NCBI GenBank assembly: GCA_964401135.1 | Contig: CAYNXC010000002.1 | Span: 112,975 to 176,974, forward strand | DNA from: an uncultured Candidatus Saccharibacteria bacterium | GTDB taxonomy: Bacteria > Patescibacteriota > Minisyncoccia > Phycocordibacterales > UBA9988 | Length of the DNA: 64,000 nucleotides | Direction: 5' to 3' | Shown here: positions 19,022 to 57,153 of the stretch, piece by piece | Layout of the letters: every line of letters starts with the position of its first letter | Position numbering within the stretch: the first letter of the stretch is position 1 | The notes under the pieces: model-generated | Databases searched by the model: none | What the model was told of the DNA's origin: nothing | The model's input: only the letters and a program-made list of their open reading frames with translations | Position numbers and translations under genes: made by a program

Positions 19022-19095
19022 TGCCGAGTCGTCTAATGGTAGGACATCGCCCTTTGGAGGCGAGTATCTTGGTTCGAATCCAAGCTCGGCAGCCA
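19022..19095 (+). tRNA. tRNA-Gln(TTG): tRNA-Gln (anticodon TTG), CCA encoded; overlapped on opposite strand by the 3-prime end of the recombinase ORF
   Basis: acceptor tgccgag/ctcggca (U1-A72), anticodon stem tcgcc/ggcga loop ctTTGga, T-arm cttggttcgaatccaag, discriminator G + CCA. Confidence 0.8.
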
Positions 19096-20694
19096 ATTTG
19101 CATCTTTTTGATGCGCAGACACTTTTTGTCCAGTAGTTGCTGGCTCTTTTGTGATTTCTGCCAGTTCGTAGCTCATATTCAAGCGAGGAATCCAATTATG
19201 CAGAAATTCGGCAGCTTTTGAGTAAACGGGCTTGATTTCATAACGGTTTTGCAGAAGGTTCGTAAAAAGCTGGGAGAGAAGCAGACGCTTTTCCTCGATG
19301 TTGGCTTTCTCATAGATTTCCTTCGACCTGAATGCAAGCTCGTGGACTGCTAGACCAAGATGCAGAAACTCATCATTCTTGTCTCCCAAGCGTTCTAGCG
19401 CAGCTTCCAAGGTTTCTTCTTCGGTAGTGCACTCGGCAATCTTACGCTCAACGTATTCAAGTGGAGCTTCGCGGTTGATTTTTGCTTCGTAGTATTTGTC
19501 CTTCTGTTGGCGCACGTTGGCGAGAAGTCCGTTGAGATGAGCTATTTCTTGCTCGCGTGTCTTGATTTTGTCCGCGTGTTCCTCGCGCAAGATATTTTCA
19601 ATCTCGCATAGCACCTCCTCACTCTTGGGTGCGATGAGGTCAAAGAAGTCTGTATACTGGGACTCAATACGGTCTTGGCGCACGCAGGTTTTACCAGAAC
19701 ACCTCTTATACTCGCCGTGATTATTACAGTGTCCATACCAATGTCCTTTCTTCTCGTACCAGGTCAACATTCCGCCGCAGTGTTCACACTGAATCTTGCT
19801 CTTGAAAAGAGGGTTGTGCTTCGCCAGGTGCGGATTTTTGGTCTTGCGGCGCAAGATAGTCTGTACTTTGTCGAAGGTATCTTTGGTAATGATAGGCTCG
19901 TGCTTCGCAGGTAATACGCCACCTTTCCATCGCATCTTGCCGTAGAAGAAAGGATTTTGCAGAAGCTGGTGGATTTTACTCATCCCAACTTTCTTCCCGC
20001 CTTTCTTGATTTTCTTTCCATCCACTTCTTTTTCAGTGATTCTAGTACGCAGCCCCTTCTCGTATAGTTCCTTTTCTAGCTTTGAAAGGGAGTAGTTGCC
20101 TGTAGCGTACAACTCAAACATTTTTTTGATGTGAGGTGCGATATTCTCATCTACCTGGTGAATCTTGCCACCAGTTTCTTCGAGAGGTTTGTATCCTAGC
20201 GGTGGCTTTGTTGGGTATAGTTCATTCTCGACCTTCACTTTTTGACTCTTACGCACTTCTTCGGAAAGGTTATTGGAATAGAAGCGAGCGATAGCTACTT
20301 TCATATCCCATACAAGATTCTCGTGCGCTCGTGTCTCGCCGTTTGCGATAAATGATTCCTTTACGAAGTGAACAGCCCTCTGCGGGTCAGATTTAAGCCA
20401 TTCATCCACTGTTCCAGCGTCTTTAAGATTTCTAGTCAGACGGTCAATCTTTTCACATAAAATAACAGGAATCTTATTCTTGGTAGCAAACTGAATCATC
20501 TCGTAAAAGGTCTTTCGAGCGTGCTTGCCACTCGCAGATTCAGAGATTCGATACACTTTCACAACATTAAGATTCCTCTTGGTTGCGTGCTCTCTCAAGA
20601 GATTTTCCTGCGCGTCGAGTGAATAGCCAGTTTCCTGGTCTTTGGTTGAAACTCGACAATATGCAACTGCTTTTACTTTTGTTTCTGTGCTCAT
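19033..20694 (-). CDS. large serine recombinase (integrase) of integrated element; last ~21 codons lie antisense to tRNA-Gln
   Basis: N-terminal resolvase catalytic segment AVAYCRVSTKDQ, recombinase domain, zinc beta-ribbon CEHCGG...HCNNH...C, C-terminal coiled-coil. Confidence 0.85.
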   Translation of the reverse strand: MSTETKVKAVAYCRVSTKDQETGYSLDAQENLLREHATKRNLNVVKVYRISESASGKHARKTFYEMIQFATKNKIPVILCEKIDRLTRNLKDAGTVDEWLKSDPQRAVHFVKESFIANGETRAHENLVWDMKVAIARFYSNNLSEEVRKSQKVKVENELYPTKPPLGYKPLEETGGKIHQVDENIAPHIKKMFELYATGNYSLSKLEKELYEKGLRTRITEKEVDGKKIKKGGKKVGMSKIHQLLQNPFFYGKMRWKGGVLPAKHEPIITKDTFDKVQTILRRKTKNPHLAKHNPLFKSKIQCEHCGGMLTWYEKKGHWYGHCNNHGEYKRCSGKTCVRQDRIESQYTDFFDLIAPKSEEVLCEIENILREEHADKIKTREQEIAHLNGLLANVRQQKDKYYEAKINREAPLEYVERKIAECTTEEETLEAALERLGDKNDEFLHLGLAVHELAFRSKEIYEKANIEEKRLLLSQLFTNLLQNRYEIKPVYSKAAEFLHNWIPRLNMSYELAEITKEPATTGQKVSAHQKDANWLPSLDSNQDTRLQRAMSYH

Positions 20695-21602: not shown

Positions 21603-23324
21603 TTAACCATCATCCACCCTGGGTTGGTTGAGTGTGCAAAGTACGGTGTTTTTCTGTCCCTGTTCCGTGTGCACTTCGCCAGCCTCGATAAGTTCTTCGA
21701 GCGTAGTTTTAAGGGTAGAGCGTCCGACTTTCACACCAGCGTCTCCGACACGTTTCAAAACATCACTTTTTGACAGTGGCTCAAGTGATTTTTCCAGTAC
21801 GCTTTTAATAGCCGCCGCAGCCTCTGCCTTCTTGCTCGGTTTCTCTTTCACTTTACCCGCGTACTCGAATCTCAAAGAATGCGGTTCGCTAACGACATTC
21901 ACCTCAAAAGGTTTCTGTTCTTCCTCCTGTCGCAATTTAGTCTGGGTAAGTGTTAAAAACCTCTCATCTGCTTTTCTTGATACAGCAATATGACAGTCCA
22001 GGAACGCGAGAATATCGGATGAGCCACGCATCTCTTGGGATAAATTAGAGGATACGCCACCTTGTTTTCTATGGTGATGCGTGATGAGAACGCTGATGCC
22101 ATTCTTCGTGAACTCTTTGAGATGTTTGGAAACAGCCGCCATTTTTGAAGCATCATTTTCATCTGTATTGTGAATCCTAATGAACGAATCGAAGATGATA
22201 ACTTTCGCTTCCAGCTTTTCGGCTACACCCAGAATGCTTTGCACATTCTCATCATTCAAAGAGAATCCTTGAAGTGAAATAAAGTGAATAGGCAGACCCG
22301 ATGTCGCCGAAAGTTTCTTTAACCGACCTTGAATCAGAGACGGAGAGTTTTCTTCGTCTACGATGAGTACAGGACTTTTCATAACATCAAAGTTATCGAA
22401 AACTCTGTTACCCTCGGCAATTTTGAGTGCGATATGTAGCGTGAGCCACGTCTTGTAGACCGCAGGTGCGCCAGAAATGAAAGTGATAGCGTCTTTCGGA
22501 ATGAGATTCTCGACCACCCACTGAATATCGCCGAAGTCTTGCCGCATCAATTCATCTAGGGACGTTGAAGCGAATGTTTTTGCAGGTTCTTTCTCGCCGC
22601 GCTTCTTGTTTTCACGTTCTCGAATACTCTCAAACGTGCGGCGCAGCTCAACTTCTTCGAGTGGAGGATTGCACTTGCTTTGATTCCAAGCAGATACAAG
22701 CGACCACGCCATTTCCCAGTCATTTCTGTCACGAAAACTACCGAGTAATTTTCCAATGACTTTTGCTGCGGTGTCATTGCGCCTACCTTCCAAAACTTTT
22801 TCATCTGTATTCCGTGAATCATTCCGTGTGCTTACTGGAATCTGTGTATCGAGCACCCACTGTGGCAATTCCTCAAAGCCAGAATCATCAGGAGAAATAA
22901 TCCACTCGTAGGATTTACCACTTTCGTGAATTGAGGGCGGCATAACTACGTACCCACCATCACCACGAACATCCACGTGCGAAATGATTCCAGCACTGTT
23001 TTTAACCTCTCTGCCTGGGTGCTTGTAGAAATAATGTTTTCCTCTACCTGTACGAGAAACTGCTGTAGGAGAAAGTGGTTTGTCTATCTTTTCCATCGTG
23101 TCTACATCAACCACAACAATGCCAGAAATTGCACCTGTAATGACTCCAACATTAGCGTTGGGAAACCGCGCATACCACTCCTCAATTTGTTCCTTCGATG
23201 CTCGCTCTTTCTGATACTTTTGCCAAACTACAAGTGGTTTTTTATCTCGCCCAACAGGAAAAACAGAGAAGCCGAGTTCGGCGTAATGCAATGCTGATTT
23301 AAGAATCTCGTTTCTGTTTTCCAT
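21603..23324 (-). CDS. replication protein: bifunctional DNA primase-polymerase (PrimPol) N-terminal domain fused to RepA/AAA_25-type ATPase-helicase domain
   Basis: PrimPol-like LGFSVFPVGRDKKP...GVITG...VVVDVD; ATPase block LIVDEENSP...VLITHHHRKQGG typical of AAA_25/RepA. Confidence 0.7.
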   Translation of the reverse strand: MENRNEILKSALHYAELGFSVFPVGRDKKPLVVWQKYQKERASKEQIEEWYARFPNANVGVITGAISGIVVVDVDTMEKIDKPLSPTAVSRTGRGKHYFYKHPGREVKNSAGIISHVDVRGDGGYVVMPPSIHESGKSYEWIISPDDSGFEELPQWVLDTQIPVSTRNDSRNTDEKVLEGRRNDTAAKVIGKLLGSFRDRNDWEMAWSLVSAWNQSKCNPPLEEVELRRTFESIRERENKKRGEKEPAKTFASTSLDELMRQDFGDIQWVVENLIPKDAITFISGAPAVYKTWLTLHIALKIAEGNRVFDNFDVMKSPVLIVDEENSPSLIQGRLKKLSATSGLPIHFISLQGFSLNDENVQSILGVAEKLEAKVIIFDSFIRIHNTDENDASKMAAVSKHLKEFTKNGISVLITHHHRKQGGVSSNLSQEMRGSSDILAFLDCHIAVSRKADERFLTLTQTKLRQEEEQKPFEVNVVSEPHSLRFEYAGKVKEKPSKKAEAAAAIKSVLEKSLEPLSKSDVLKRVGDAGVKVGRSTLKTTLEELIEAGEVHTEQGQKNTVLCTLNQPRVDDG

Positions 23325-24938: not shown

Positions 24939-25151
24939 ATGAAGAAAAGTAAGGAGGAGCAATTTTTGACTCTTCAAGAGGTCGCCAAGCGCTTGCGGGT
25001 TAGCGAGCGTTCGGTGTTTCGATATATTCACGACGGAAAGATTGAAGCCACGAAAGTGGGCTACTGGCGCATCACTGAAAGTGCTTTGGCAAAGTTTTTG
25101 AAAGACCGCTCCAATCTGAACAAGTCGCCGCGTAAGAAGTCGAAAAAGTAA
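24939..25151 (+). CDS. xis: excisionase-family HTH DNA-binding protein (MerR/Xis-like HTH_17); start at MKKSKEEQ
   Basis: LTLQEVAKRLRVSERSVFRYIHDGKIEATKVGYWRI matches excisionase/HTH_17 pattern. Confidence 0.7.
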   Translation: MKKSKEEQFLTLQEVAKRLRVSERSVFRYIHDGKIEATKVGYWRITESALAKFLKDRSNLNKSPRKKSKK

Positions 25152-25176: not shown

Positions 25177-27687
25177 ATGCAAAAAGAAGCCAAAGCCAGA
25201 ATCAAAATAAACAACCTACTACAGCAATCTGGCTGGAGGTTTTTCGATGATGAGAACGGCAAGGCAAACATCACCCTTGAGCTTAATACCAAACTTACGA
25301 ACAAAGATATCAATGATATCGGCGAAAACTTTGAGAACACAAAGAACGGTTTTGTAGACTTCCTTCTGCTCGACGATAAGGGCTTTCCGTACGTTGTTCT
25401 TGAGGCAAAGTCCGAGGACAAAGACCCTCTTGATGGTAAAGAGCAGGCACGTCGCTATGCGCAGTCTCTGAACGTCCGCTTTGTTATCCTTTCAAACGGG
25501 AACCTCCACTACTTCTGGGACTTGGAGCGCGGCAATCCATCCATCATTATCCAATTCCCAACACCTGAATCTCTACAACATTTTGAGCAGTTCAAACCGA
25601 ATCCTAAACAACTTGCCGAGGAAAAAGTTTCTAACGATTACATAGTTCTTACCCAGAAAGCGGAGTACCAAAATGACCCGCGCTGGATAGACGAAGCACA
25701 GCGAGATGATTTCGTGTACGCGGAGTCGCTCAAGTTCTTGCGCCCGTATCAGCTTCGTGCGGTTCAGTCTCTCCAAGAAGCTGCTACTGCTGGTAATGAC
25801 CGTTATCTTTTTGAGATGGCAACGGGTACGGGTAAAACACTCGTGTCTGCTGCTGTTATCAAACTCTTTCTCAAGTCTGGTAATGCAAAGCGCATCCTCT
25901 TTCTTGTAGACCGTTTGGAACTTGAAGACCAAGCCGCAAAGAGTTTTAAGAAACTACTCTCGAAGGATTACACAACTGTTATCTACAAGGAGAGCAAGGA
26001 CGATTGGCGTAAGGCAGAGATTGTTGTCTCAACAGTGCAAAGTCTATCTTTCAATAACAAATACCAGCGACTCTTTTCTCCAACTGACTTCGACCTCATT
26101 ATCTCTGACGAAGCCCATCGTTCAATAGGCGGAAACAGCCGTGCGGTTTTCGAGTATTTTGTTGGCTACAAGCTCGGACTTACAGCAACACCAAAAAATT
26201 ATCTCAAGGGCATTGACCCAGATAAACTCAACTCAAAAGACCCTCGTGCGTGGGAACGCCGACAACTTCTTGATACCTACAAGACTTTTGGTTGCGAGAG
26301 CGGAGAACCTACATTCCGATACACACTCCTCGATGGCGTGAAAGATGGATATCTCATCAACCCTGTTGTTGCTGATGCTCGTACAGAGATTACGACAGAG
26401 CTTCTTTCAGAGAAGGGATATTCTCTGATGGTTGAAAGTGAAGATGGTAAAGAGGAGGAACAGGTCTTCTTTCATACTGATTTCGAGCGTAAGTTTTTCT
26501 CCGACAAGACCAATCAGATTTTGTGCAAAACATTCTTGGAAAACGCACTCAAAGACCCGATTACGGGTGAAATAGGAAAAGGTATCGTTTTCTGTGTGAG
26601 CCAGAAGCACGCCTCAAAAATTACCCAGACGCTCAATCAGTTTGCAGACCAGCTTTATCCAGGAAAGTACAACTCCGATTTTGCGGTGCAGATTACTTCC
26701 AACATTCCGAACGCACAGGAATATACCATCAACTTTGCGAACAATAACCTTAATGGCTATACGAAGTTCCTGGATGGCTATCGTTCCAGCAAGACACGCG
26801 TCTGCGTAACGGTAGGAATGATGACAACAGGATATGACTGCGAAGATATCCTGAATGTGGCACTGATGCGCCCTATATTCTCTCCAACAGATTTCATTCA
26901 GATAAAGGGACGCGGTACACGTAAGTTTTCGTTTGTGCACCAGGAAAAAGAAGGTGGCGAGATACAAGAAGCAAAGATACCAAAAGACAAGTTCAAGCTG
27001 TTCGATTTCTTTGCGAACTGTGAATACTTCGAGGACAAATATAACTACGATGAGGTTTTGGTTCTTCCAACCATCGGCACGGGCACAGGTGGTGGTGATG
27101 GTGTGAATATAGACGAAGTATCAATCACACAGCACGACCCACTCAAGACGTTTACTGAAAAAGCGGTTGGTATGGATGGAATGAAGATTGACCGCAAGCT
27201 ATTTGAGAAGTTTGAGGCGGCAATCAAAGAAGACCCATTCATCAAACAGAAATACGAAGAAGGCGACCTTGCTTCCATCGAAAATTACGTAAAAGAAAAT
27301 ATCTTCGATAAGCCAGAGGAATGGTTTAGTCTCGATAAGCTCCGCAAGTCTGTCAAAGCTGACCGTCGCATCAGCATCCGTGAGTTCATTGCCAAAGCGT
27401 TTGGAGGCATCACCAGGTTCAAGTCAAAGGATGAATTGCTTGAAGATGAGTTTGAGCAATTTGTCGCTATCAACAAACCAGACAGCCAATACGTAATGCC
27501 AATCAAGAATTATTTGAAGGCATACATCACTGATAACGAAATTAGAGACATTATCGAGAAAGGAGAATATACGCGCTTGGCAACCAACCCCAAGCTCACG
27601 TTTGCTGACCTCCAAGAGCTAAATGGTTGGATTGAACGCGTGCCAGAATACGTGAAGGACTACGTATCTCTTAACGCTTATATGTAA
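25177..27687 (+). CDS. hsdR: Type I restriction enzyme R subunit
   Basis: HsdR_N nuclease motif VDFLLLDDKG...VVLEAKSE, SF2 helicase motifs ATGTGKT (I), DEAHR (II), C-terminal helical region. Confidence 0.9.
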   Translation: MQKEAKARIKINNLLQQSGWRFFDDENGKANITLELNTKLTNKDINDIGENFENTKNGFVDFLLLDDKGFPYVVLEAKSEDKDPLDGKEQARRYAQSLNVRFVILSNGNLHYFWDLERGNPSIIIQFPTPESLQHFEQFKPNPKQLAEEKVSNDYIVLTQKAEYQNDPRWIDEAQRDDFVYAESLKFLRPYQLRAVQSLQEAATAGNDRYLFEMATGTGKTLVSAAVIKLFLKSGNAKRILFLVDRLELEDQAAKSFKKLLSKDYTTVIYKESKDDWRKAEIVVSTVQSLSFNNKYQRLFSPTDFDLIISDEAHRSIGGNSRAVFEYFVGYKLGLTATPKNYLKGIDPDKLNSKDPRAWERRQLLDTYKTFGCESGEPTFRYTLLDGVKDGYLINPVVADARTEITTELLSEKGYSLMVESEDGKEEEQVFFHTDFERKFFSDKTNQILCKTFLENALKDPITGEIGKGIVFCVSQKHASKITQTLNQFADQLYPGKYNSDFAVQITSNIPNAQEYTINFANNNLNGYTKFLDGYRSSKTRVCVTVGMMTTGYDCEDILNVALMRPIFSPTDFIQIKGRGTRKFSFVHQEKEGGEIQEAKIPKDKFKLFDFFANCEYFEDKYNYDEVLVLPTIGTGTGGGDGVNIDEVSITQHDPLKTFTEKAVGMDGMKIDRKLFEKFEAAIKEDPFIKQKYEEGDLASIENYVKENIFDKPEEWFSLDKLRKSVKADRRISIREFIAKAFGGITRFKSKDELLEDEFEQFVAINKPDSQYVMPIKNYLKAYITDNEIRDIIEKGEYTRLATNPKLTFADLQELNGWIERVPEYVKDYVSLNAYM

Positions 27688-27689
27688 TT

Positions 27690-30113
27690 ATGCTTACCGC
27701 AGAAACAAAAAGAAAAATTGATAATGCGCGAGATATCCTCGTAGGAAAAGTGCCAGACCCGAAGGCGCAGGTGGAGCAGATTACTACGGCGCTCATCTAT
27801 AAGTTTATGGATGATATGGATATGCACTCTGCCTCTCTCCCGAAAGGTAAAGCGCAATTCTTCACTAACGGTTTTGGAAAATATGCCTGGAGCAAACTGA
27901 TGGATGCGAAACTTGGTGGGCAAGAGCGTCTGAATCTTTACGAGGAAGCGATTAGAAAGATGTCTACTAATCCACACTTACCTCAACTTTTTCGTGATGT
28001 ATTTAAGGATGCTTATCTACCTTATCGAGACCCACAAACACTTAATCTTTTCTTGAAGGAGATAAACGATTTTGAATACGACCATAGCGAGAATCTTGGT
28101 GATGCGTTTGAATACCTACTTTCTGTACTTGGCTCTCAAGGTGAGGCTGGACAATTTCGCACACCACGCCACATCATTGATTTCATTGTTGAAGTGCTTG
28201 ACCCTAAAAAAGATGAAACCATCCTCGACCCAGCGTGTGGTACGGCAGGTTTTCTAATTTCTGCATATAAACACATACTCAAGGCAAATGAAAAAAAGCG
28301 ACTTACACCAGACGAAAAAAAGCGGCTAATGAGCAATTTGGCTGGATACGATATTTCACCAGATATGGTGAAGCTCTCTCTTGTGAATATGTATCTCCAC
28401 GGTTTTCCAAGTCCGAATATTCACGAATACGATACACTCACAAGCGATGAACGTTGGGACGAGCACTTTGACGTAATGATGGCGAATCCTCCTTTTATGA
28501 CTCCGAGGGGCGGTATCCGTCCTCATAAGCGATTTATGGTGCAAGCGAATCGTGCAGAAGTCTTGTTTGTTGATTACATAATGGAACATCTCAACAGCAA
28601 GGGGCGCGCAGGTATTATTGTTCCTGAAGGTGTTATTTTTCAATCTGCTGGTGCATATAAAGAGTTGAGGCGAGCGCTTGTGGCAGATGGATTGTATGCG
28701 GTTGTATCTTTACCTGCTGGTGTCTTTAATCCTTATGCGGGAGTGAAAACCAGTATCCTATTTTTTGATAACCAACTCTCAAAGTTATCCAAGGAAGTGC
28801 TTTTTATCAAAGTACTCAATGATGGTTTTAGTTTAGGTGCACAACGTAGACCAATAGATAAAAATGATTTACCACACGCTCTCAAGGTTTTGCAGGCGCA
28901 CAAAGAGGCAATACTCAATAAGAAAAGAAGCCCTCTCAAAAAAGAAAACCTGTTTGCTTGGACAATAAGTAAAAAGAAAATTGCTGAACGTGTTGATACT
29001 AACCTTGAGGGAGAGAGATACAAACCAGTAAAGTTTGCTGAAAGATTGAAGCATCCATTAGAGGAGTTGGGTAACATTATCGAACTCGATTTTGGAACGA
29101 GGATTACTCAAAAGAATAATACTGGCAGTCTATATCCTGTTTATGGTGGAGGCGGTGAAAGTTTTAGAACCGATGACTTCAACAGGCAGGATGAGGTAGT
29201 GATTTCGAGGTTTGCTATGTCAGAAAATTGTGCGCGAGTTGTGAAGGAAAAGTTTTTCCTAATGGACTCTGGTTTTACTTACTCAATCAAGGAAGAGTTT
29301 GCTGCTAGGGCGGATAAACAGTTCATAGATTACCTAATACTCAATATGCAGGAGCGTATCTATGCCTGTGGCAGAGGGCACGCCCAAAAGAATCTTGATA
29401 CCAAGGCTTTCAAAAAGTTACTCATTCCACTTCCAACACTTGAGGAACAGAAACAAATTATTTCTGAATTAGATAGCTACCAAAAAGTGGTTGATGGTGC
29501 GAATCAAGTAATTGAACACCACAAACCATCAATTCAAATTAGCGAGTCTTGGGAACGAGCAGAACTAGGTGATATTGCCAAGATGGAGTATGGATACACA
29601 GAAACAGCAAAGATTAAGGGAGATGCTCGTTTTGTCCGTATAACAGATATCAGTAACGAAGGACACCTAAAGTCGGAAGGTGCGAAGTACGTAAACCTTA
29701 CCAAAGAGGCAAAGGCATACTTACTCAAGCGCGGGGATGTTCTTGTTGCCCGTACTGGTGCAACGTATGGCAAAACTATGATTTTCAATGAAGAATATCC
29801 AGCAGTATTTGCTTCGTTTCTTATTCGCCTCAATTTCGATACCAAAAAGATTCTCCCAGAATACTATTGGGCATTTGCTCAAACCACTGATTACTGGAAT
29901 CAAGCAAGGGCGTTAGTAACAGGCGGTGTGCAGCCGCAGTTCAATGGTAATGCAATGAAACATCTTTCTATTCCACTACCAAGTTTAGAAGTCCAAGAGC
30001 AAATTATTGCTCAAGTGAAAAATGAACAAGCACACGCTTCATCTGCGATGAAAATGGTTGAGATTTATGGAGATAAGATTAAAAATAAAATTGCCGAAAT
30101 ATGGGGCGAATAA
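27690..30113 (+). CDS. hsdMS: fused Type I R-M methyltransferase-specificity protein (HsdM ~470 aa + HsdS with two target-recognition domains)
   Basis: HsdM N-terminal domain, SAM motif DPACGTAGFL, catalytic NPPF; C-terminal two TRD blocks each ending in HsdS conserved spacer LPLPTLEEQKQI / LPLPSLEVQEQI; uninterrupted 807-aa frame. Confidence 0.85.
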   Translation: MLTAETKRKIDNARDILVGKVPDPKAQVEQITTALIYKFMDDMDMHSASLPKGKAQFFTNGFGKYAWSKLMDAKLGGQERLNLYEEAIRKMSTNPHLPQLFRDVFKDAYLPYRDPQTLNLFLKEINDFEYDHSENLGDAFEYLLSVLGSQGEAGQFRTPRHIIDFIVEVLDPKKDETILDPACGTAGFLISAYKHILKANEKKRLTPDEKKRLMSNLAGYDISPDMVKLSLVNMYLHGFPSPNIHEYDTLTSDERWDEHFDVMMANPPFMTPRGGIRPHKRFMVQANRAEVLFVDYIMEHLNSKGRAGIIVPEGVIFQSAGAYKELRRALVADGLYAVVSLPAGVFNPYAGVKTSILFFDNQLSKLSKEVLFIKVLNDGFSLGAQRRPIDKNDLPHALKVLQAHKEAILNKKRSPLKKENLFAWTISKKKIAERVDTNLEGERYKPVKFAERLKHPLEELGNIIELDFGTRITQKNNTGSLYPVYGGGGESFRTDDFNRQDEVVISRFAMSENCARVVKEKFFLMDSGFTYSIKEEFAARADKQFIDYLILNMQERIYACGRGHAQKNLDTKAFKKLLIPLPTLEEQKQIISELDSYQKVVDGANQVIEHHKPSIQISESWERAELGDIAKMEYGYTETAKIKGDARFVRITDISNEGHLKSEGAKYVNLTKEAKAYLLKRGDVLVARTGATYGKTMIFNEEYPAVFASFLIRLNFDTKKILPEYYWAFAQTTDYWNQARALVTGGVQPQFNGNAMKHLSIPLPSLEVQEQIIAQVKNEQAHASSAMKMVEIYGDKIKNKIAEIWGE

Positions 30114-31459
30114 CCAAGAACATTATGAACCTCACCACTGAACAAAAGAAGGAACTGGAATCTTACTTGACGACATATCGAGACGTGCCAATTGTCGAGA
30201 ATGACGGTATGCAAGAATCATACGCATCCTTTGATGATAAGCGTGTTGCTGCAACAGTTGAGATAAAGAAGCTGGTTGATGATTTTCTGCGCGGCGGTCT
30301 TTCTGTTGCCGAGTTCAAGGAACAAAGCGATGCAATGAGTCGCAAGTTTTCATATTGGGGGTTCAAAGGTTTTAGCGGACAGATGCAGCTCAACCAGTAC
30401 GCAAACAATATCGAAGACGCAGAACAAGAGCAGCGTCTTAAGGAAGCTATTGCATTGCCCGCAACTCTCGATGAGGCGGTAGCGAAAATAAACACTTTCG
30501 CGGAGTATATGCGGGAGCTGAAAACAAAAACCGATAATCCCAAGAGTATCCCGCGTATCAACCAGTCTTTTATGCTCTCGTACTTCTGGGAGATGCAAAG
30601 CCCTGAACTCTATCCTGTGTACTTCGGTTCAATGAAGAACGTGTTGGAAAACCTGGGCTTTGACTTCAAGAGCCAAGAGACACCAGGAGACGAGTACCGA
30701 TACTTTGCAGAGATTTGCTACGCAGTTCGTGAGTTCTTTGAACAGAGCGGAATGCAGGAAACACACCCGATATGGTACGTCGAACACGTTATCTGGCACT
30801 ACTTCAAAAAGCAGAATACGGAGATTGAGACAGAGGTAAAACAAGCAGTGCCAAGCAAAATCAGAATCGGAAAAACACCAGAAGAAAGTTGGACACCACC
30901 TATCATTGGCGACCTTGAACAATTGGCGCTCAATCAAGAAACCGAATGGTCAAAATTGCGTGGGCTAAAACCTGAAAAAGCGTTTGAGACCAAGCTACGT
31001 TATCTGTTTACCATTCTTGGATACAACACCACCGAGCTTGGACAAGGTAGAGGCAGAGAGCCAGACGGTATTACTATCTCCAATGACGGTAACGCTGGCT
31101 ATTACGCCATCATCTACGATGCAAAAGCACGAGAAAAGGATTACTCAATCGGTACACAAGACCGAGAGATTGTTGAATACATCAAAAACAAACAGCGTGA
31201 GTTGCAGCGCCAGCGCGTTGATAAGGTTTCTTTCTTGATTGTTTCTTCGGAGTTCACTAACAGTCCTTCACTTGAAAACTCACTCAAAGACATCTACCGA
31301 GCAACGCGAGTACCAGTGATTCTCGTACGGGCAAAAGACCTGTTGCGTATCGTCGAGCGCAAACTATCGAATGCAGATATAGACCACGTGCAGCTCGAAG
31401 ACCTGTTCCTTGAGACAGGCGTACTCACCGCAGATAAAATTGTGGACGTACTTGGATAA
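30101..31459 (+). CDS. hypothetical protein with C-terminal Mrr-like PD-(D/E)xK restriction-endonuclease fold and unrecognised ~280-aa N-terminal domain; overlaps hsdMS stop (alternative start 30125)
   Basis: C-terminal ILGYNTTELGQGRGREPDGITIS...YAIIYDAKAREK fits Mrr_cat PD...(D/E)xK pattern; N-terminal region has no recognisable motif. Confidence 0.6.
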   Translation: MGRITKNIMNLTTEQKKELESYLTTYRDVPIVENDGMQESYASFDDKRVAATVEIKKLVDDFLRGGLSVAEFKEQSDAMSRKFSYWGFKGFSGQMQLNQYANNIEDAEQEQRLKEAIALPATLDEAVAKINTFAEYMRELKTKTDNPKSIPRINQSFMLSYFWEMQSPELYPVYFGSMKNVLENLGFDFKSQETPGDEYRYFAEICYAVREFFEQSGMQETHPIWYVEHVIWHYFKKQNTEIETEVKQAVPSKIRIGKTPEESWTPPIIGDLEQLALNQETEWSKLRGLKPEKAFETKLRYLFTILGYNTTELGQGRGREPDGITISNDGNAGYYAIIYDAKAREKDYSIGTQDREIVEYIKNKQRELQRQRVDKVSFLIVSSEFTNSPSLENSLKDIYRATRVPVILVRAKDLLRIVERKLSNADIDHVQLEDLFLETGVLTADKIVDVLG

Positions 31460-31460
31460 T

Positions 31461-32273
31461 ATGAAAAAGAAAACCGCCATCATACTCATAGTTGTTGCCG
31501 CTATCATCGCCTTCATCGCGGGGGCGTGGGTTTTTATGGGCGACTATTACGAAGCTGATGAGACTGCGTACATTCCTGAAAGTTGCAACGTGCTTGCGTT
31601 CGCCGTCAACGGTTATCTTGCTACATACACCAGCGACACCACAGCAGAAGAACTCGAAATGGATGCTGTTTCGTCGTGGAATATCGCCGATGGCATCCGC
31701 CACGCAAAAGATTACCCGAACGTCAAAGCAATCCTACTTTCCGTTGATTCAAGTGGCGGAGACCCCACCACTGGTGAAGAGATAGCAAACGCTCTCAAAG
31801 CCCTAGAATTGCCTTCTGTAGCGGTTATCCGAAGCATCGGAGCATCTGCTGCATATTGGGCTGCTACAGGAGCGGATACAGTCTTTGCATCTCGTGTTTC
31901 TGATGTTGGCAGTATCGGCGTTACCGCTTCTTATCTTGATGAGACCGTTAAGAATGCAAAGGATGGCTACACACTTGTAGAACTATCATCAGCACCACAC
32001 AAAGATGCGGGTAGCCCGAACCGCGCTCTCACTGCGACAGAAAAAGCAGCTATCGTTTCCGACCTCAAGAAGATACACGAAGTATTTGTTGATGATGTTG
32101 CTGCGAATCGAAACCTTGAACGTGAGAAAGTGGCACAGCTTGCGAACGGACTCACCTATCTCGGCGTTGACGCGCTTGAGTACGGCTTGGTAGATAAACT
32201 CGGCGACTTCACTGCCGCCACTGACTACATCGCAGAACAGATTGGCGAGCCAGTGGAGTTGTGTTGGTACTAG
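31461..32273 (+). CDS. sppA: signal peptide peptidase SppA-like (S49 / ClpP-fold) with N-terminal TM anchor
   Basis: TM helix AIILIVVAAIIAFIAG, S49 core ILLSVDSSGGDP...VIRSIGASAAYWAA. Confidence 0.75.
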   Translation: MKKKTAIILIVVAAIIAFIAGAWVFMGDYYEADETAYIPESCNVLAFAVNGYLATYTSDTTAEELEMDAVSSWNIADGIRHAKDYPNVKAILLSVDSSGGDPTTGEEIANALKALELPSVAVIRSIGASAAYWAATGADTVFASRVSDVGSIGVTASYLDETVKNAKDGYTLVELSSAPHKDAGSPNRALTATEKAAIVSDLKKIHEVFVDDVAANRNLEREKVAQLANGLTYLGVDALEYGLVDKLGDFTAATDYIAEQIGEPVELCWY

Positions 32274-48755: not shown

Positions 48756-50102
48756 ATGTCTTCACACACACAAGAGCACACACTCCACGTGCAGGGTATG
48801 CACTGTCGTGGATGCGAGGTGCTCATAGAAAGGAAGTTTGGAGAAATTGATGGTATAAGTTCTGTGCGGGCACATCAGCATCGGGGTACCGTCTCTTTTC
48901 GCAGTTCTCGCGATATCCCCTTAGATGTTCTCAATGCAGCGATTACTGCCGATGGTTACCATGTCACTCACGAACCACTTACTGTCGTACGACAAAAGAA
49001 TACGGCGCTTGATTACATGGAGATCGGAGCGGTCGCGATGATTCTCTTCTCTTCGTACCTGCTCTTCTCAAAACTTGGTCTCATTCCTGAAGTGTCTCTA
49101 TCGGAGAATATGAGCTACGGGGTCATCTTTATTATTGGCCTCGTTGCCGCCTTCTCTACTTGTATGGCAGTCTCAGGAGGATTACTCCTTGCCATCAGTG
49201 CCCGTGCAGCAGAAAAAAATCCGCACGCAACGCGCCGTGAACGATTGGTCCCACACCTCTACTTCAACATCGGCCGCATCATCTCCTACACTTTTTTAGG
49301 AGGAGCTATTGGAGCACTCGGTTCTGTCATTGCACTCTCGCCTGCAATCAATGGGATTGTTACGGTGCTTGCCTCCCTTGTTATGATCGTGCTTGGATTC
49401 CAAATTCTGAATCTCTTCCCTCGCCTCTCGTATCTGATTCCCAAAATGCCCAAGTTACTTGGGCACCGCATCCACGCCTTGGCAGGTCGCGATGGGGGTC
49501 GGGGATCATTCTTATTGGGAGCCGGAACCTTTTTCCTCCCCTGCGGGTTTACCCAGGCACTCCAGCTCTATGTGCTTGCACAAGGGTCGGCACTCACCGG
49601 AGCACTCACGATGCTTACCTTTGCACTCGGTACTCTACCCGCCTTTCTTGCTGTTGGAGCAGTATCACAAGCTGAAAGTGGCACATTCCGTCGTTACTTA
49701 CTCAAAACGGCGGGAGTGCTCGCGCTTACTCTTGGTATCGTCAACACGAGTGCAGGATTTACTCTCTTAGGAGTTGGCGGCATTACAAAGGGTACTGGTA
49801 ATGCTGTTACGATAACAGAGGAAGGTGGTACGCAAGTTGTTGAGATGAAGGTGCGTGGTCTCTCGTACTCTCCCTCACAATTTGTTGTCAAAAAAGGCGT
49901 TCCTGTTGAATGGCGCATTGATGGCACTGGTGCCGCAGGGTGCGCACGAGTCATTGTTGCCCCTAAGCTTGGTCTCTCCACCTACTTGAAGGCGGACGGC
50001 CCGACTATTGTTACCTTCACTCCAGAACAAGAGGGGACTATAGAGTTCAGTTGTAGTATGGGGATGACAACTCGTGGTGCAAAGTTTATCGTTAAATCAT
50101 AA
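48756..50102 (+). CDS. HMA (CxxC) domain + DsbD/CcdA-like transmembrane domain + C-terminal cupredoxin-like domain protein
   Basis: GMHCRGC metal-binding motif, 6 TM region with paired Cys, C-terminal beta-sandwich with Cys/His/Met candidates. Confidence 0.65.
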
Positions 50103-50107
50103 TCTGT

Positions 50108-52282
50108 ATGAAAACTATTCAATTCCGCATCCCCGATATGCACTGTGCTTCGTGCGTGACTAATAATGAGTCTGCACTCAAAGCACTTTCCGGGGTGCAG
50201 TCAGCATCAGTCAACTTTGCAACACGAGCGGCAACGGTTGAATATAATGAGGCGCAGGTATCAGAAGAAAAGCTCCATGAAGCAGTCATACAGAATGGGT
50301 ACCATGTAGCGCCTCTCCACAATGATGGAGCGAGTTCACATGAGCATCACAATGAGGTGAAGAGTGCACGGTTCCGCGCATTTTCTGCTATCCTTCTTGC
50401 TCTCCCGCCACTTATCCTCTCAATGGGAGCTATCCGTTTTGGCACGCTCTTTGTCGGTTTAGATCTGAGCATCTGGATCCAAACACTACTCTCTTCATTC
50501 GTTATCCTGATTATTGGAAGCGAGTTCCATATCCGTATGTTACGACAAGCACGGAGATTCCGCGCCGATATGGATACACTCATCTCTGTTGGTACTCTCT
50601 CTGCACTCTTGCTCTCGCTCTGGTCACTCACACAGGGGGATAGCGAGTCGCTCTACTTTGAGACGGGGGCAGTAATCACAGCTCTTATTCTCCTCGGGCG
50701 CTACTTTGAAGCGCTCTCGCGTGGGAGGGCGAGTGCGGCAATAGAAAAGTTGATGGCACTTGGCGCAAAAACTGCTCGTGTGCTTCGCGACGGTGAGGAG
50801 CGTGACATCCCGATAGAAGAGATACACATTGGAGATCAGATCCGCGTGCGACCAGGAGAAAAAATTCCAGTAGATGGGATTATTGTTGATGGAGTCTCCA
50901 GCGTTGATGAGTCTGCCTTGACGGGCGAGAGCATGCCTGTTGAGAAAAAAAATGGTGACACAGTGCTCGGTGCAAGCGTCAACCAATATGGTTCCTTCGT
51001 AGTACGAGCAGAAAAGATTGGTGCAGATTCAGTACTCGGTCAGATGGTAACAATGGTGGCAGAAGCGCAGAGTGCCAAGGCGCCGATACAAAAACTTGCC
51101 GATCGTGTCTCGGGCATCTTTGTTCCGATAGTCATGCTCATTGCACTGATTACCGCGGTACTCTGGTTTATAGTTACCAGAGATGTAGGAGCATCACTCA
51201 TCCCCGCAGTTGCCGTATTGGTTATTGCATGCCCGTGCGCGCTTGGGTTAGCCACTCCTACCGCAATTATGGTGGGGACAGGCACCGGTGCACGACGGGG
51301 GATACTGATTAAAAATGGAGAGTCATTGGAGAAGGGGAAAAATATAGACACAGTAGTCTTTGACAAAACAGGTACCTTAACTGAAGGTCATCCTGGAGTC
51401 ACCAATGTAGATTGTGCTACAGGAGTACAAGAAGCAGAGATGCTTGCACTTGCGGCAAGTCTAGAGATACTTTCGGAACATCCGCTTGCTCGCGCTGTTG
51501 TAGAGTATGCAAAGACGCACCACATTACCTTACATACAGCGACAGAGTTTGCGAGTATTCCTGGTCGTGGTGTACGGGGGAACATAGGGCCTCATACGAT
51601 CTCTGTTACGAGTGTCAGAGATGCGGAGACGCGGGGAGTCAATTTTTCTGCGTATCGTGAGCAGATACGACTCCGTGAGACAGAGGCAAAGACTGTTCTC
51701 GTTGTCGTTCGTGGAGAAGAGTACCTCGGGTCAATCTCTGTTGCAGACACAGTGAAGCCAGAATCTCACCGTGCTATTGCCGCGCTACAGAAGCGAGGCA
51801 TCCGTACCGTGATGATAACGGGCGATAATCAATTGACGGCCGAAGCGATTGCGCGAGCGGTTGGTATTACTGAAGTGTTTGCAGAAGTACTCCCACAAGA
51901 TAAGCGCAATAAGGTACAGGAACTCCAACAGAAAGGTCGGCATGTTGCTTTTGTCGGTGACGGTATTAATGACGCGCCCGCGCTCGCTCAATCTGATCTG
52001 GGGATTGCTTTAGGTACAGGGACTGACATTGCCATTGAGACCGGTGATATTGTCTTGGTAAAAGGGAGCCCTCTGAAGGCGCTTGAGGGGCTCATGCTCT
52101 CACAAAAGACCTTCCGCATTATCAAGCAAAATCTCTTTTGGGCTTTTGCTTACAATGTAGCAGCGATACCTCTTGCGGCACTCGGTTTTCTCAATCCTAT
52201 GATCGCTGCCGCAGCAATGGCCTTCTCATCTATCTCTGTCATTCTCAATTCACTTCGTCTCCGTATCCCTGTGTTATACTAG
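50108..52282 (+). CDS. copA: copper-translocating P1B-type ATPase
   Basis: N-terminal HMA MHCASC, TM CPC motif ([12 protein letters not shown]), DKTGTLT phosphorylation site, GDGINDAP. Confidence 0.9.
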
Positions 52283-52321
52283 TTCTTAGGCCGTATTACT
52301 CACATTAACACAGACATTACT

Positions 52322-52441
52322 ATGATGGGATTCGGATATGGGGGTGGATTTGGACCTCTTCTCTCACTCCTCTCGAGCATCGTGTGGCTCGTGGCTGGCA
52401 TTCTCCTTATTATCTGGCTGTGGAAGCAAATCAGCAAGTAG
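52322..52441 (+). CDS. 39-aa Gly-zipper hydrophobic peptide (MMGFGYGGGFGPLLSLLSSIVWLVAGILLIIWLWKQISK), below ORF-track cutoff
   Basis: in-frame ATG..TAG immediately after copA and before a terminator hairpin. Confidence 0.35.
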   Translation: MMGFGYGGGFGPLLSLLSSIVWLVAGILLIIWLWKQISK

Positions 52442-52456
52442 CCCTTGCCAGAAAAG

Positions 52457-52488
52457 AAAATCCCTCCGCTTAAAGCGGAGGGATTTTA
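52457..52488 (+). terminator. intrinsic terminator closing copper module
   Basis: stem aaaatccctccgc/gcggagggatttt with ttaa loop and T-run. Confidence 0.7.
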
Positions 52489-52544
52489 GTGAATTATAAG
52501 GTTGTCCACCGTCTTTTTTGAACTCTACCCTGTATAATAGAGGC

Positions 52545-53765
52545 ATGGCACTACGAGTGCTAATGTTCGGCTGGGAGTTTCCTCCCCGGTCAAGTGGCGG
52601 CTTGGGCGTGGCGTGTTTTGGATTGACTCGAGCACTTACGCAAGATGGAGTGAAGGTTCATTTTGTACTTCCTAAGCATATGGATCCGGAAGTGACTTTT
52701 ATGGATTTTTCTTTTGCTGACATTCCCAACGTTGTTGCTACAGGAGTAAACTCATTGCTCTATCCCTATGTGACCGAAGGAAGCTACCTCTCCTCGTACT
52801 ACACAGTAGGTGGTGGGGGTGGTATGTACGGTCCCTCACTTTTTGAAGAGGTACTGCTCTACGCGTCCAAGGCGGAAGAGATAGCCAGTAATTCATCATT
52901 TGATGTTATTCATGCACATGATTGGCTCTCCTTTCTCGCGGGGCTTGAGGCAAAACGGGTGAGCGGGAAGCCTCTAGTGGTTCATGTTCACGCAACTGAG
53001 TTTGATCGGAGTGGTGGGAACAGCGCCAATCCTCGCGTGTATGAGATCGAGAAGAAAGGGATGCAGGGAGCAGACAAGGTTGTGGCAGTCTCCTTATGGA
53101 CCAAACAAGTAATCATAGAGAAGTACGGTATTACTCCAGAAAAAATAGAAGTAGTACACAATGGGGTTGAGGCGAAAGACTTCAGAGCACTCCCATCAGA
53201 CTTAACCGCACTCAAGCACGCAGGTAAAAAAATCGTGCTCTTCCATGGGCGTATTACTCTACAGAAGGGCCCAGACTATTTTATCCGTACTGCGAAGCGC
53301 GTGCTTGAATATTATCCTGATGCACTTTTCATCGTGTCTGGTATTGGTGATATGCTCCCACAGATGATACGCGAGACAGTGCGACTTGGTATCTCCGACA
53401 AAGTATTCTTTGTTGGTGCCTTATGGGATGACGAACGTGATCGCGTGTATCAGGCGGCAGATGTAGTGCTGATGCCATCGGTCTCAGAGCCATTTGGTAT
53501 CGTGCCACTAGAGGCGCTTACAAATGGAGCCCCGGTACTTATTTCAAAACAATCTGGTGTCGCAGAGGTCCTCTCTCATGCCTTAAAGAGTGACTTTTGG
53601 GACATTGATGAAATGGCAAATAAGATTGTGGTGATGCTCCGGAATGATTCATTACAAGCGACCTTGCGTAAAAATGGTGGTAAAGAAGTTGAGACCATCA
53701 CTTGGTCTAAGGCGGCGCAGAAGCTCCTTGGGGTGTATCAGTCGCTCGCACCTAAATTTACATAA
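52545..53765 (+). CDS. glgA: glycogen/alpha-glucan synthase-like glycosyltransferase (GT4/GT5-like, K-x-GGL-type motif)
   Basis: MALRVLMFGWEFPPRSSGGLGVAC N-terminus, C-terminal GT-B E..E region; GAGG RBS. Confidence 0.7.
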   Translation: MALRVLMFGWEFPPRSSGGLGVACFGLTRALTQDGVKVHFVLPKHMDPEVTFMDFSFADIPNVVATGVNSLLYPYVTEGSYLSSYYTVGGGGGMYGPSLFEEVLLYASKAEEIASNSSFDVIHAHDWLSFLAGLEAKRVSGKPLVVHVHATEFDRSGGNSANPRVYEIEKKGMQGADKVVAVSLWTKQVIIEKYGITPEKIEVVHNGVEAKDFRALPSDLTALKHAGKKIVLFHGRITLQKGPDYFIRTAKRVLEYYPDALFIVSGIGDMLPQMIRETVRLGISDKVFFVGALWDDERDRVYQAADVVLMPSVSEPFGIVPLEALTNGAPVLISKQSGVAEVLSHALKSDFWDIDEMANKIVVMLRNDSLQATLRKNGGKEVETITWSKAAQKLLGVYQSLAPKFT

Positions 53766-54964
53766 TGGCATCCGTCTGTTTTTACTTTCAAGTCCACCAG
53801 CCCTGGCGCGTAAAGCGCTTCAGAATCTTTGATGTGGGGAACGGAGGGAGATATTTTGACGATCAGTCTGTGACAAATCTCAATAACGAGAAGATATTTA
53901 GAAAAGTCGCCGAGAAATCCTATCTACCGGCGAATGCGGTTATGCTCGCACTTTTGAAGCGCCATCCTGAATTCCGCGTGAGCTACTCACTTTCGGGAGT
54001 ATTTATGGAACAGATGGAGAGCTTTGGCACTGATGTGTTGGACTCCTTCCGTCGCCTTGTTGATACTGGTCGCGCTGAACTCCTCTCTGAGACTTACTAT
54101 CACTCACTCTCCTTCCTCTACTCGCGTGACGAGTTTGCTGAGCAAGTGAAGCTCCATCGCGACAAGGAGCACTCGCTCTTTGGGGTAACACCGAGAGTCT
54201 TTCGTAATACAGAGTTGATCTTTAGTAATGAAGTAGCACAAGCTGCAGCCGAACTCGGTTACACGGGGATCCTCGCTGAAGGGGCAGACCATGTGCTGGA
54301 CTGGCGCAGTCCAAACTTTTTGTACACAGCAAAGGGGGCAAACAATATCAAGCTGATGCTCAAGAATTACAAACTCTCAGACGATATTGCTTTCCGTTTT
54401 GGTAGTCGCTCATGGGCAGAGTATCCGCTCACGGCGCCGAAATTTTCACAGTGGGTGAATGCGATTAATGGGAACGGCGATGTGGTAAATCTCTTTATGG
54501 ACTACGAGACTTTTGGAGAACATCAGTGGGAGGATACTGGTATTTTTAAATTTTTAGAGTCACTACCGCGAGAAATTTTAAGACATCCTGACAATGACTT
54601 TGTCACCGTGTCTGAAGCAGTGGAGCGTTATGAGCCAGTCTCAGAATTGGATGTCCCTCACTATGTCTCATGGGCAGATACCGAGCGAGACCTCTCTGCG
54701 TGGCTTTCCAACGAGATCCAGTACGATGCAATTGGTAAACTTTATGCGCTGGAAGGGGAGGTAAAAAAGAGCGGTGACCGACGCATTATGGAAGACTGGC
54801 GACGACTCACCACCTCGGATCACTTCTACTACATGTGTACCAAGTGGTGGAACGATGGCGATGTACACAAGTACTTTAATCCTTACGAGTCTCCCTACGA
54901 CGCCTTTATCTCATACATGAATGTACTGGAAGATCTCAAAATGCGTCTCGCTATACCCGTGTAA
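53765..54964 (+). CDS. glycoside hydrolase family 57 protein (alpha-glucan branching/amylase-type)
   Basis: N-terminal FQVHQPWR GH57 signature, catalytic-domain-length 399 aa. Confidence 0.65.
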   Translation: MASVCFYFQVHQPWRVKRFRIFDVGNGGRYFDDQSVTNLNNEKIFRKVAEKSYLPANAVMLALLKRHPEFRVSYSLSGVFMEQMESFGTDVLDSFRRLVDTGRAELLSETYYHSLSFLYSRDEFAEQVKLHRDKEHSLFGVTPRVFRNTELIFSNEVAQAAAELGYTGILAEGADHVLDWRSPNFLYTAKGANNIKLMLKNYKLSDDIAFRFGSRSWAEYPLTAPKFSQWVNAINGNGDVVNLFMDYETFGEHQWEDTGIFKFLESLPREILRHPDNDFVTVSEAVERYEPVSELDVPHYVSWADTERDLSAWLSNEIQYDAIGKLYALEGEVKKSGDRRIMEDWRRLTTSDHFYYMCTKWWNDGDVHKYFNPYESPYDAFISYMNVLEDLKMRLAIPV

Positions 54965-54975
54965 GTTTTAATAAA

Positions 54976-55017
54976 AGATCACACTTCTTCACGACAGTGA
55001 GAAAGTGTGATCTTTTT
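54976..55017 (+). terminator. intrinsic terminator
   Basis: stem agatcacacttcttc/gagaaagtgtgatct then ttttt. Confidence 0.7.
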
Positions 55018-55135
55018 CTACTAAGCGCTGAGCATATGTCTTCTTAAGTATAATAAAAGTATCACGGCCGTGAGAGAATTATTACATCTCATTTATCCAC
55101 CACGCGTGAATGTATAAGCGTGGTATTATCTTGTT

Positions 55136-57133: not shown

Positions 57134-57153
57134 GCCGTGCTACACTAGAGCCG

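Follow-up and report, generated by a model that had tools for sequence, protein, structure and literature searches.

Classical Type I systems for restriction and modification (RM) have separate methyltransferase (M, HsdM) and specificity (S, HsdS) subunits, which assemble as M2S1 and, with the restriction subunit (R, HsdR), as R2M2S1, whereas in a 64-kb stretch of DNA from an uncultured Candidatus Saccharibacteria bacterium (contig CAYNXC010000002.1, positions 112,975 to 176,974; hereafter the window) M and S form one open reading frame (ORF), hsdMS. Is this ORF a genuine gene fusion, does it belong to a Type I system, and how could a chain with a single methyltransferase (MTase) domain and two target recognition domains (TRDs) act as an enzyme? 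The analysis revealed that the gene is a real, natural M-S fusion (M~S) of 807 amino acids (aa), a fairly ordinary member of a widespread and poorly annotated family. With the adjoining hsdR gene it very probably makes up a true Type I system of the R + M~S kind. The locus as a whole is best explained as a functional two-gene Type I RM system of 'Type IMS' layout on an integrated mobile element, a reading that we regard as likely. What is said below of the activity, target sequence and subunit stoichiometry of this system is predicted from the sequence.

The hsdMS ORF starts with ATG, comprises 807 codons with no internal stop and ends with TAA. It was divided into the following parts:

27690-30113, + strand: hsdMS, fused methyltransferase-specificity protein (M~S), 807 aa (one ORF; Pfam and PADLOC matches)
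27690-29054, + strand: M module, aa 1-455, consisting of an HsdM-type N-terminal helical domain, a gamma-class N6-adenine MTase core and a tail
29058-29429, + strand: TRD1, aa 457-580 (AlphaFold2 secondary structure; bimodal identity among homologues)
29439-29519, + strand: central conserved helix CR1, aa 584-610 (AlphaFold2 model), with IPLPTLEEQKQI just before it
29553-29978, + strand: TRD2, aa 622-763 (Methylase_S match, AlphaFold2 model, bimodal identity among homologues)
29985-30104, + strand: C-terminal conserved helix CR2, aa 766-805 (AlphaFold2 model), with IPLPSLEVQEQI just before it

The preliminary description of the locus had proposed a single uninterrupted M-S fusion, and this was borne out by the ORF itself and by the Pfam and PADLOC profiles. 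Pfam placed N6_Mtase (PF02384) at aa 134-445 (E 7e-55), and the PADLOC MTase_I profile PDLC03021 spanned aa 1-460 (E 1e-102). Two motifs that had been pointed out before, the S-adenosylmethionine-binding LDPACGTAGFL at aa 179-189 (motif I) and NPPF at aa 266-269 (motif IV), are present and were invariant in the alignment of 69 family members. The tail of the M module ends with NLEGERY (aa 438-444).

The ANEKKRLTPDEKKRL segment of the M domain is encoded by DNA containing two in-frame AAAAAAG heptamers, which lie eight codons apart (28290-28316, hsdMS codons 201-209). The position of these heptamers is not conserved across the family, and no function was assigned to them.

In the C-terminal part of M~S, Methylase_S (PF01420) matched two stretches (E 4e-25), the better one at aa 619-773, and PADLOC Specificity_I profiles spanned aa 459-611 and 619-790. 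The two TRD-like blocks seen at the outset were recovered as the two Methylase_S matches and as a TRD-helix-TRD-helix order in the predicted structure, and the profiles and the HsdS folds described below showed the C-terminal part to be HsdS-like. The conserved spacers occupy aa 579-590 (IPLPTLEEQKQI) and aa 761-772 (IPLPSLEVQEQI). Both spacers had been recognized in the preliminary description, which misquoted the first residue: they open with IPLP, not with LPLP. In the DNA the spacers are visible as a direct repeat (D3) of 45 nucleotides (nt), 71% identical, at 29424-29468 and 29970-30014 (spacing 546 nt). CR1 and CR2 have 34% similarity across 58 aa.

An AlphaFold2 model of M~S was built from 69 sequences (mean predicted local distance difference test score 85, predicted TM-score (pTM) 0.52). 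In the model the M domain is followed by a low-confidence linker (aa 448-452), TRD1, a helix (aa 584-610), TRD2 and a long helix (aa 766-805). Both TRDs are beta-rich and are flanked by these two helices. The top solved match found by Foldseek was 7eew_A (E 5e-29), with HsdM chains and complete HsdS chains next. The same entry, 7EEW, was the best hit of a PDB sequence search (E 5e-33, query aa 113-592 vs chain 119-600); other sequence matches of the M module were 5ybb_A, 2okc_A and EcoKI M. Fold matches to HsdM chains had TM values of 0.6-0.74, the highest being that of 2okc_A (0.74, normalised to the target), and the S part aligned to complete HsdS chains with TM values of 0.71 (7vru_C), 0.63 (1yf2) and 0.62 (1ydx). 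These matches to complete chains identify the C-terminal 352 aa as an entire HsdS, a little shorter than those of known structure (383-425 aa). The TRDs, which had been called compact, are so only to a mild degree.

How widely this architecture occurs was determined with two sets of relatives, the best 120 homologues in a search of 5.8 billion proteins and a survey of one genome per GTDB species. In the first set 117 of the 120 proteins are 776-904 aa long and contain both PF02384 and PF01420, the other three being 634-638 aa long. The survey yielded at least 587 M~S relatives, of which the best 80 loci were analysed: of the 77 complete genes, 72 consist of one ORF of 785-889 aa, three encode shorter proteins (638-677 aa) and one is truncated. 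The hosts among the matches listed belong to more than 20 phyla and include many Patescibacteria and some archaea. The junction between M and S is conserved in the family (...NLxGxRY, linker, TRD1). One-TRD forms occur inside the same family (P0057, P0061, P0106, L082 and E. coli plasmids), the one-TRD version being found on about 106 E. coli plasmids of IncF type; a two-TRD form is present on the Paracoccus zhejiangensis plasmid pPZ02. Cultured hosts of the family include P. zhejiangensis J6 (with pPZ02), Thiobacillus denitrificans RG, Roseovarius lutimaris DSM 28463 and Leptothermofonsia sp. ETS-13. With such numbers, and with the design already engineered and named, the statement that a fused M-S is uncommon proved to be exaggerated. 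No paper describing natural two-TRD M~S proteins as a family was found in the searchable literature, REBASE not included; all that turned up were engineered fusions and the V. vulnificus protein with its single TRD. Pseudomonas aeruginosa PAO1 was rejected as an example of a natural HsdMS fusion, as hsdM and hsdS are separate genes there. The natural M~S family is ancient and diverse. Its M, CR and R sequences are of types of their own, and it does not descend from IA or IC systems.

In the family, the Prokaryotic Genome Annotation Pipeline labels M~S as 'N-6 DNA methylase' and R as 'DEAD/DEAH box helicase family protein'. Because of these generic labels R + M~S pairs, including the one-TRD E. 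coli IncF version, are easily missed as restriction barriers. The E. coli plasmid NZ_AP022031.1 (IncFIA) carries a one-TRD system at 50064-57612 (L091), between finO and repA. Its three genes bear no annotation as Type I subunits: the 849-aa product is called 'DEAD/DEAH box helicase family protein', the 677-aa one (47% identical over aa 1-591) 'N-6 DNA methylase' and the 951-aa one 'TrlF family AAA-like ATPase'. Two further entries that resemble the S part, P0242 and P0307, are labelled 'restriction endonuclease subunit S'; their first residues correspond to query aa 338 and 382, within the catalytic domain of M. They are truncated calls of fused genes rather than stand-alone S subunits.

The gene directly upstream of hsdMS encodes the restriction subunit:

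25177-27687, + strand: hsdR, restriction subunit, 836 aa, with PD-(D/E)xK nuclease and superfamily 2 (SF2) translocase (Pfam, NCBIfam, PADLOC)

The presence of a separate HsdR with intact motifs, as originally reported, was confirmed. The stop codon of hsdR lies 2 nt before the start of hsdMS. Pfam recognized HSDR_N_2, HSDR_N, ResIII and Helicase_C in the protein, PADLOC recognized REase_I, and the best PDB match was 3h1t (V. vulnificus HsdR). The nuclease motif D61...E76-A-K78, Walker A (214-221), DEAH (311-314) and motif VI (QxxGRGxR, 575-582) are conserved at ≥97% identity in 62 homologues. Linkage of R to M~S was tested in the 65 loci among the best 80 that have at least 2.6 kb of upstream sequence. 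All 65 contain an HsdR homologue (51-84% identity), which is upstream of M~S and on the same strand in 64. In these 64 loci the gap between R and M~S is shorter than 60 nt in 41 cases, and in 19 cases there is an insert of 0.6-2.2 kb.

Inserts between R and M~S were noted at L009, L015, L025, L041, L044, L046, L054, L056, L057, L065, L071, L073, L076, L082-L085 and L087. In the ten that were scanned, the products recognized were KilA-N, ORF6N, Fic, DUF4062/HATPase_c_4, a 23S_rRNA_IVP four-helix protein, PD-(D/E)XK_3, PIN and RhuM.

The locus thus combines the elements that define a Type I system: an HsdR with nuclease and SF2 translocase, a gamma-class HsdM-type MTase and a two-TRD specificity module. 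It shares with classical Type I systems the three functional modules, the motifs, the TRD-helix-TRD-helix order and the shuffling of TRDs, and the same kinds of genes (Fic, RhuM, KilA-N/ORF6N, PIN) are found inside the operon. The name 'Type IMS' was proposed for an M~S protein with one or two TRDs accompanied by a separate HsdR (PMC3510504). This is the arrangement in the window, where HsdM and HsdS are one polypeptide and HsdR is encoded separately.

Experimental precedents are available for such proteins. In the EcoKI MSFusion the frameshift between hsdM and hsdS was removed (Roer et al. 2012, PMC3510504); together with HsdR this fusion restricts and modifies in vivo, whereas the purified protein needs added free HsdM in vitro (PMC3510504). 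With the S. aureus CC398-1 MSfus (Bower et al.) as the sole expressed protein, ACCN5RTGA was methylated in vivo on both of its strands (~77% and 76% of the motifs); this fusion cuts DNA with HsdR and no added M (PMC6158711). It runs at a size compatible with a dimer and co-purifies with a clipped fragment of ~73 kDa, consisting of M and half of TRD1 (PMC6158711). Like these engineered proteins, the window system has a full HsdM in frame with a two-TRD HsdS and a separate HsdR; unlike them, it represents a natural family, the engineered fusions having been derived from classical IA and Sau1 systems by frameshift removal.

The natural protein nearest to M~S is the 'minimal intact' Type I methyltransferase of V. 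vulnificus YJ016, which is made up of HsdM and half of an HsdS and was crystallised (PDB 7EEW; Seo et al. 2022). As summarized in a later paper (PMC12429846), a dimer of two copies recapitulates M2S1. The two systems have in common a natural M~S and a separate HsdR, and 3H1T, the best match of the window's R, comes from the same species. They differ in that 7EEW, going by that summary, has one TRD and one helix and forms a 2M:2TRD dimer. In the window protein another TRD and another helix are present (aa 611-807), which gives 1M:2TRD and presumably an asymmetric bipartite target. The engineered Type IMS proteins and the crystallised one-TRD form are already known; the window gene adds a natural two-TRD member.

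The TRDs of M~S were compared with those of the 120 homologues. Identity of the N-terminal domain and catalytic core of M to the window protein is 61-94%, one N-truncated match excepted. Identity of the TRDs is bimodal: 53-67% or 8-25% for TRD1 and 51-80% or 11-28% for TRD2. All four combinations of same or different TRD1 and TRD2 were found, with no link to M identity. Thus P0002 (M 92-94%) has TRD2 in common with the window protein and not TRD1, P0016 has TRD1 and not TRD2, P0015 (M 85-89%) has neither and P0008 (M 66-71%) has both. The sequences show independent swapping of the two TRDs among relatives, which is the mosaic pattern defining classical hsdS evolution.

The locus is not a phase-variable hsdS inverton. 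In tblastn searches of the 64-kb window with the M and S parts no other hsdM- or hsdS-like sequence was found, and there is no second hsdM or hsdS within 8 kb on either side of any of the 80 related loci. The longest inverted repeats in the window are ≤29 nt at ≤82% identity, which is the chance level. The lack of spare hsdS cassettes and meaningful inverted repeats, stated already in the preliminary description, was upheld by these scans. A large serine recombinase encoded in the window fits the role of an integrase and not that of an hsdS invertase, because it abuts tRNA-Gln at the edge of an island and the closest relative lies in an element of the same kind.

A working Type I methylase is M2S1. 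In the enzyme envisaged here, a bipartite DNA target would be read by the two TRDs of M~S, spaced by the two conserved helices, and adenine would be methylated by the gamma-class catalytic domain with its NPPF motif. On an unmodified target HsdR would dock on the M part, pull DNA at the expense of ATP and cleave it with its PD-(D/E)xK nuclease. The most likely assembly would be an M2S1-like core. A second M might come in trans from a second M~S chain with an idle S part, or from a clipped fragment containing M; judged by analogy, the chances that it is supplied in trans are about even. The preliminary description had held that fusion fixes the M:S stoichiometry. It sets the ratio at 1:1 instead of the 2:1 of M2S1, so that stoichiometry becomes a problem instead of being settled: the EcoKI fusion needed free HsdM and the CC398-1 protein carried a clipped M fragment.

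A programmed frameshift at the M/S junction was considered as a source of free M and was rejected as a conserved feature. In-frame X_XXY_YYZ heptamers at aligned positions 400-460 of 72 genes occur in 8, 12 and 4 sequences per 20-aa bin, with no enrichment relative to the rest. The A-runs at hsdMS codons 416-430 in the window are not canonical slippery sites.

Several points weigh against the reading of the locus as a functional Type I system. One chain provides 1M:2TRD, which does not match canonical M2S1, and wasting one S per complex would be unexpected for a family this widespread. The experimental precedent, to which the argument appeals by analogy, consists of engineered fusions and a one-TRD protein, not of natural two-TRD members. 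One related locus, P0101, is without an adjacent R. The curated hsdM, hsdS and EcoAI R models score far below their cut-offs (NCBIfam TIGR00497 hsdM, 56.7 vs 242.75; PRK09737 hsdS, 70.1 vs 662; EcoAI/FtnUII R subunit (family IB), the best NCBIfam model for HsdR, 247.8 vs 550 bits), which puts the system outside the curated IA-IE families. The geometry between domains in the AlphaFold2 model, with its pTM of 0.52, is uncertain. Finally, Pfam HsdM_N (PF12161) gave no match in aa 1-134 of M~S, even at E≤5. The HsdM N-terminal domain reported in the preliminary description was therefore undetected by Pfam; it was covered by the PADLOC MTase_I match to aa 1-460 and by the 2okc_A fold, and the N-terminal ~130 aa are an HsdM-type domain despite the missing Pfam match.

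Other explanations of the locus were weighed, one of which involves the gene that follows hsdMS:

30125-31459, + strand: FokI-like nuclease gene, 444 aa, downstream of hsdMS

Classical hsdM and hsdS genes are adjacent or overlapping and can be fused by a 1-nt error, thus a frameshift or a lost stop codon might have joined two separate genes. This possibility, raised at the outset, has been effectively refuted. A Logan contig from an independent assembly codes for exactly the same 807-aa protein, the single ORF prevails in the family, and fusion and junction are conserved in hundreds of independent contigs, from more than 20 phyla among the matches listed; the apparent 'S-only' proteins examined, P0242 and P0307, being truncated pieces that retain the M C-terminus, represent the reverse artefact. 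It is also conceivable that M~S acts alone as an orphan or regulatory methylase and that HsdR is inactive or unrelated, since Type I methylases are active without R and P0101 has no R next to it. With an hsdR that ends 2 nt before hsdMS and has kept all its nuclease and ATPase motifs, with R co-conserved in 65 of 65 loci, and with the locus lying on a mobile island among other defence-type genes, this is very unlikely. Equally unlikely is a Type II-like hybrid, in which M~S would protect against the FokI-like nuclease, in the manner of the Type I-like methylases of AhdI and BstXI, and HsdR would be secondary. The FokI-like gene begins 11 nt beyond hsdMS (with the other ATG, at 30101, the two would overlap by 13 nt; the lengths of homologues favour 30125), its PD...D-x-K motif is intact, and homologues lie directly downstream of other RM operons of the N6-methyladenine type. 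However, the gene is found in none of the 80 related loci, as against HsdR in 65 of the 65 testable ones, and the nuclease's N-terminal domain resembles base-flipping glycosylase folds, not a TRD. Since its close homologues (~73% identity) have beside them RM systems whose S subunits are unrelated, and in some cases no RM at all, the nuclease cannot share the sequence specificity of these systems. The class of Type I-like methylases serving a Type II nuclease (AhdI, 'Type 1 1/2', and BstXI) was ruled out by the same absence from the 80 loci and by HsdR being the conserved partner.

The alternative that bears on the mechanism is a half-enzyme, R1(M~S)1. Both TRDs would read the site, the single M domain would methylate one adenine on one strand, and restriction would depend on one-way translocation and on collision, the way it does in Type ISP or Type III enzymes. 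The gene supplies exactly one M for its two TRDs, searches of the window and of 8 kb on either side of the 80 loci found no other hsdM, and the junction offers no conserved frameshift site for making free M; moreover, the natural enzymes AloI and CjeI have the same one-M-per-two-TRD ratio, which was called 'a mystery' by Loenen et al. (PMC3874165). On the other hand, the engineered CC398-1 MSfus methylated both strands by itself, at ~77% and 76% of motifs (PMC6158711). The one-TRD relatives must dimerise, which keeps 2M:2TRD and argues for a canonical M2-type core in the family, and the HsdR is an ordinary Type I R. We consider the half-enzyme unlikely and favour the M2S1-like core. A broader proposal was also judged improbable. 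In it, natural two-TRD M~S proteins could be asymmetric R1M1S1 machines that recognize a bipartite site, methylate one strand and restrict by collision, as a two-gene counterpart of Type ISP and a model for the 1RM:2TRD puzzle of AloI and CjeI; separately, the recurrent FokI-like nuclease, with its glycosylase-like N-terminal domain, might represent a novel modification-dependent restriction enzyme accompanying Type I operons in Patescibacteria.

Assignment to other classes was examined as well. AloI and CjeI, single-chain Type IIB/IIG enzymes (R~M~S), resemble the window protein in having one MTase domain per two C-terminal TRDs, and a PADLOC IIG profile (1271 positions) matched the S part. 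They differ in their N-terminal nuclease fused to M, in the lack of an ATP-dependent translocase and in cutting at a fixed position. The Type IIB/IIG class (AloI/CjeI, MmeI) was ruled out, as aa 1-130 of M~S align to the HsdM N-terminus and nuclease and helicase are on a separate R. Type ISP enzymes (LlaGI, LlaBIII) are similar in that their M is joined to a TRD and in that they possess an SF2 motor and a nuclease resembling those of Type I. In Type ISP, nuclease, motor, M and one TRD are in one chain, whereas here there are two genes and two TRDs, and this class was also excluded. The methylation-associated defence system (MADS) was rejected with MAD2 at 93.9 bits (cut-off 720), MAD5 at 49.3 (cut-off 400) and no other mad genes nearby.

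The preferred reading, a two-gene Type I system of Type IMS layout, does not overturn current understanding: the parts, their order and the likely mechanism are standard Type I. The natural family shows wide use of the 'Type IMS' intermediate, which Dryden's group built to link Type I with Type IIB/IIG. With one M per two TRDs, the family also offers a simple two-protein system for the stoichiometry question that it has in common with AloI and CjeI.

The locus lies in an integrated mobile island that extends from 19022 to ~32000, the right end being approximate. Other features in this region are as follows:

19022-19095: tRNA-Gln, abutting the large serine recombinase
19033-20694, - strand: large serine recombinase, at the edge of the low-GC island
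21603-23324, - strand: primase-polymerase with AAA_25 domain
24939-25151, + strand: HTH_17 gene, 70 aa, directly upstream of hsdR (Pfam HTH_17, E 2.5e-13)
31410-32273, + strand: S49/SppA-type peptidase ORF

The GC content of the island is 41-44%, compared with ~50% to its left. No att repeats of ≥11 nt were found for the tRNA-Gln region, and a search for DNA similarity to known phages gave no match. The closest relative, P0002 (76% identity; L002/L003), resides in the same kind of element with the same layout. The S49/SppA-type ORF, called from a TTG start, overlaps the 3′ end of the FokI-like gene; the call on the Logan contig is 277 aa. This ORF may be cargo of the island or a gene of the host.

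Since all 80 related loci lack the FokI-like gene, it does not belong to the conserved R + M~S system. Of five further homologues examined, three are situated immediately downstream of RM operons that are unrelated, in four of the six places mapped, and the other two have no RM nearby. The protein is best regarded as an accessory nuclease, which may depend on modification and would travel with RM operons in Patescibacteria.

The HTH_17 gene is also found upstream of the R-M~S operon in L002/L003, and it heads a classical M-S-R operon beside a FokI-like homologue. It may control the RM genes in the way of a C protein or may serve the element as its excisionase, and belongs to the context of the system rather than to its core. 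The island carries other defence-type genes beside the R + M~S locus.

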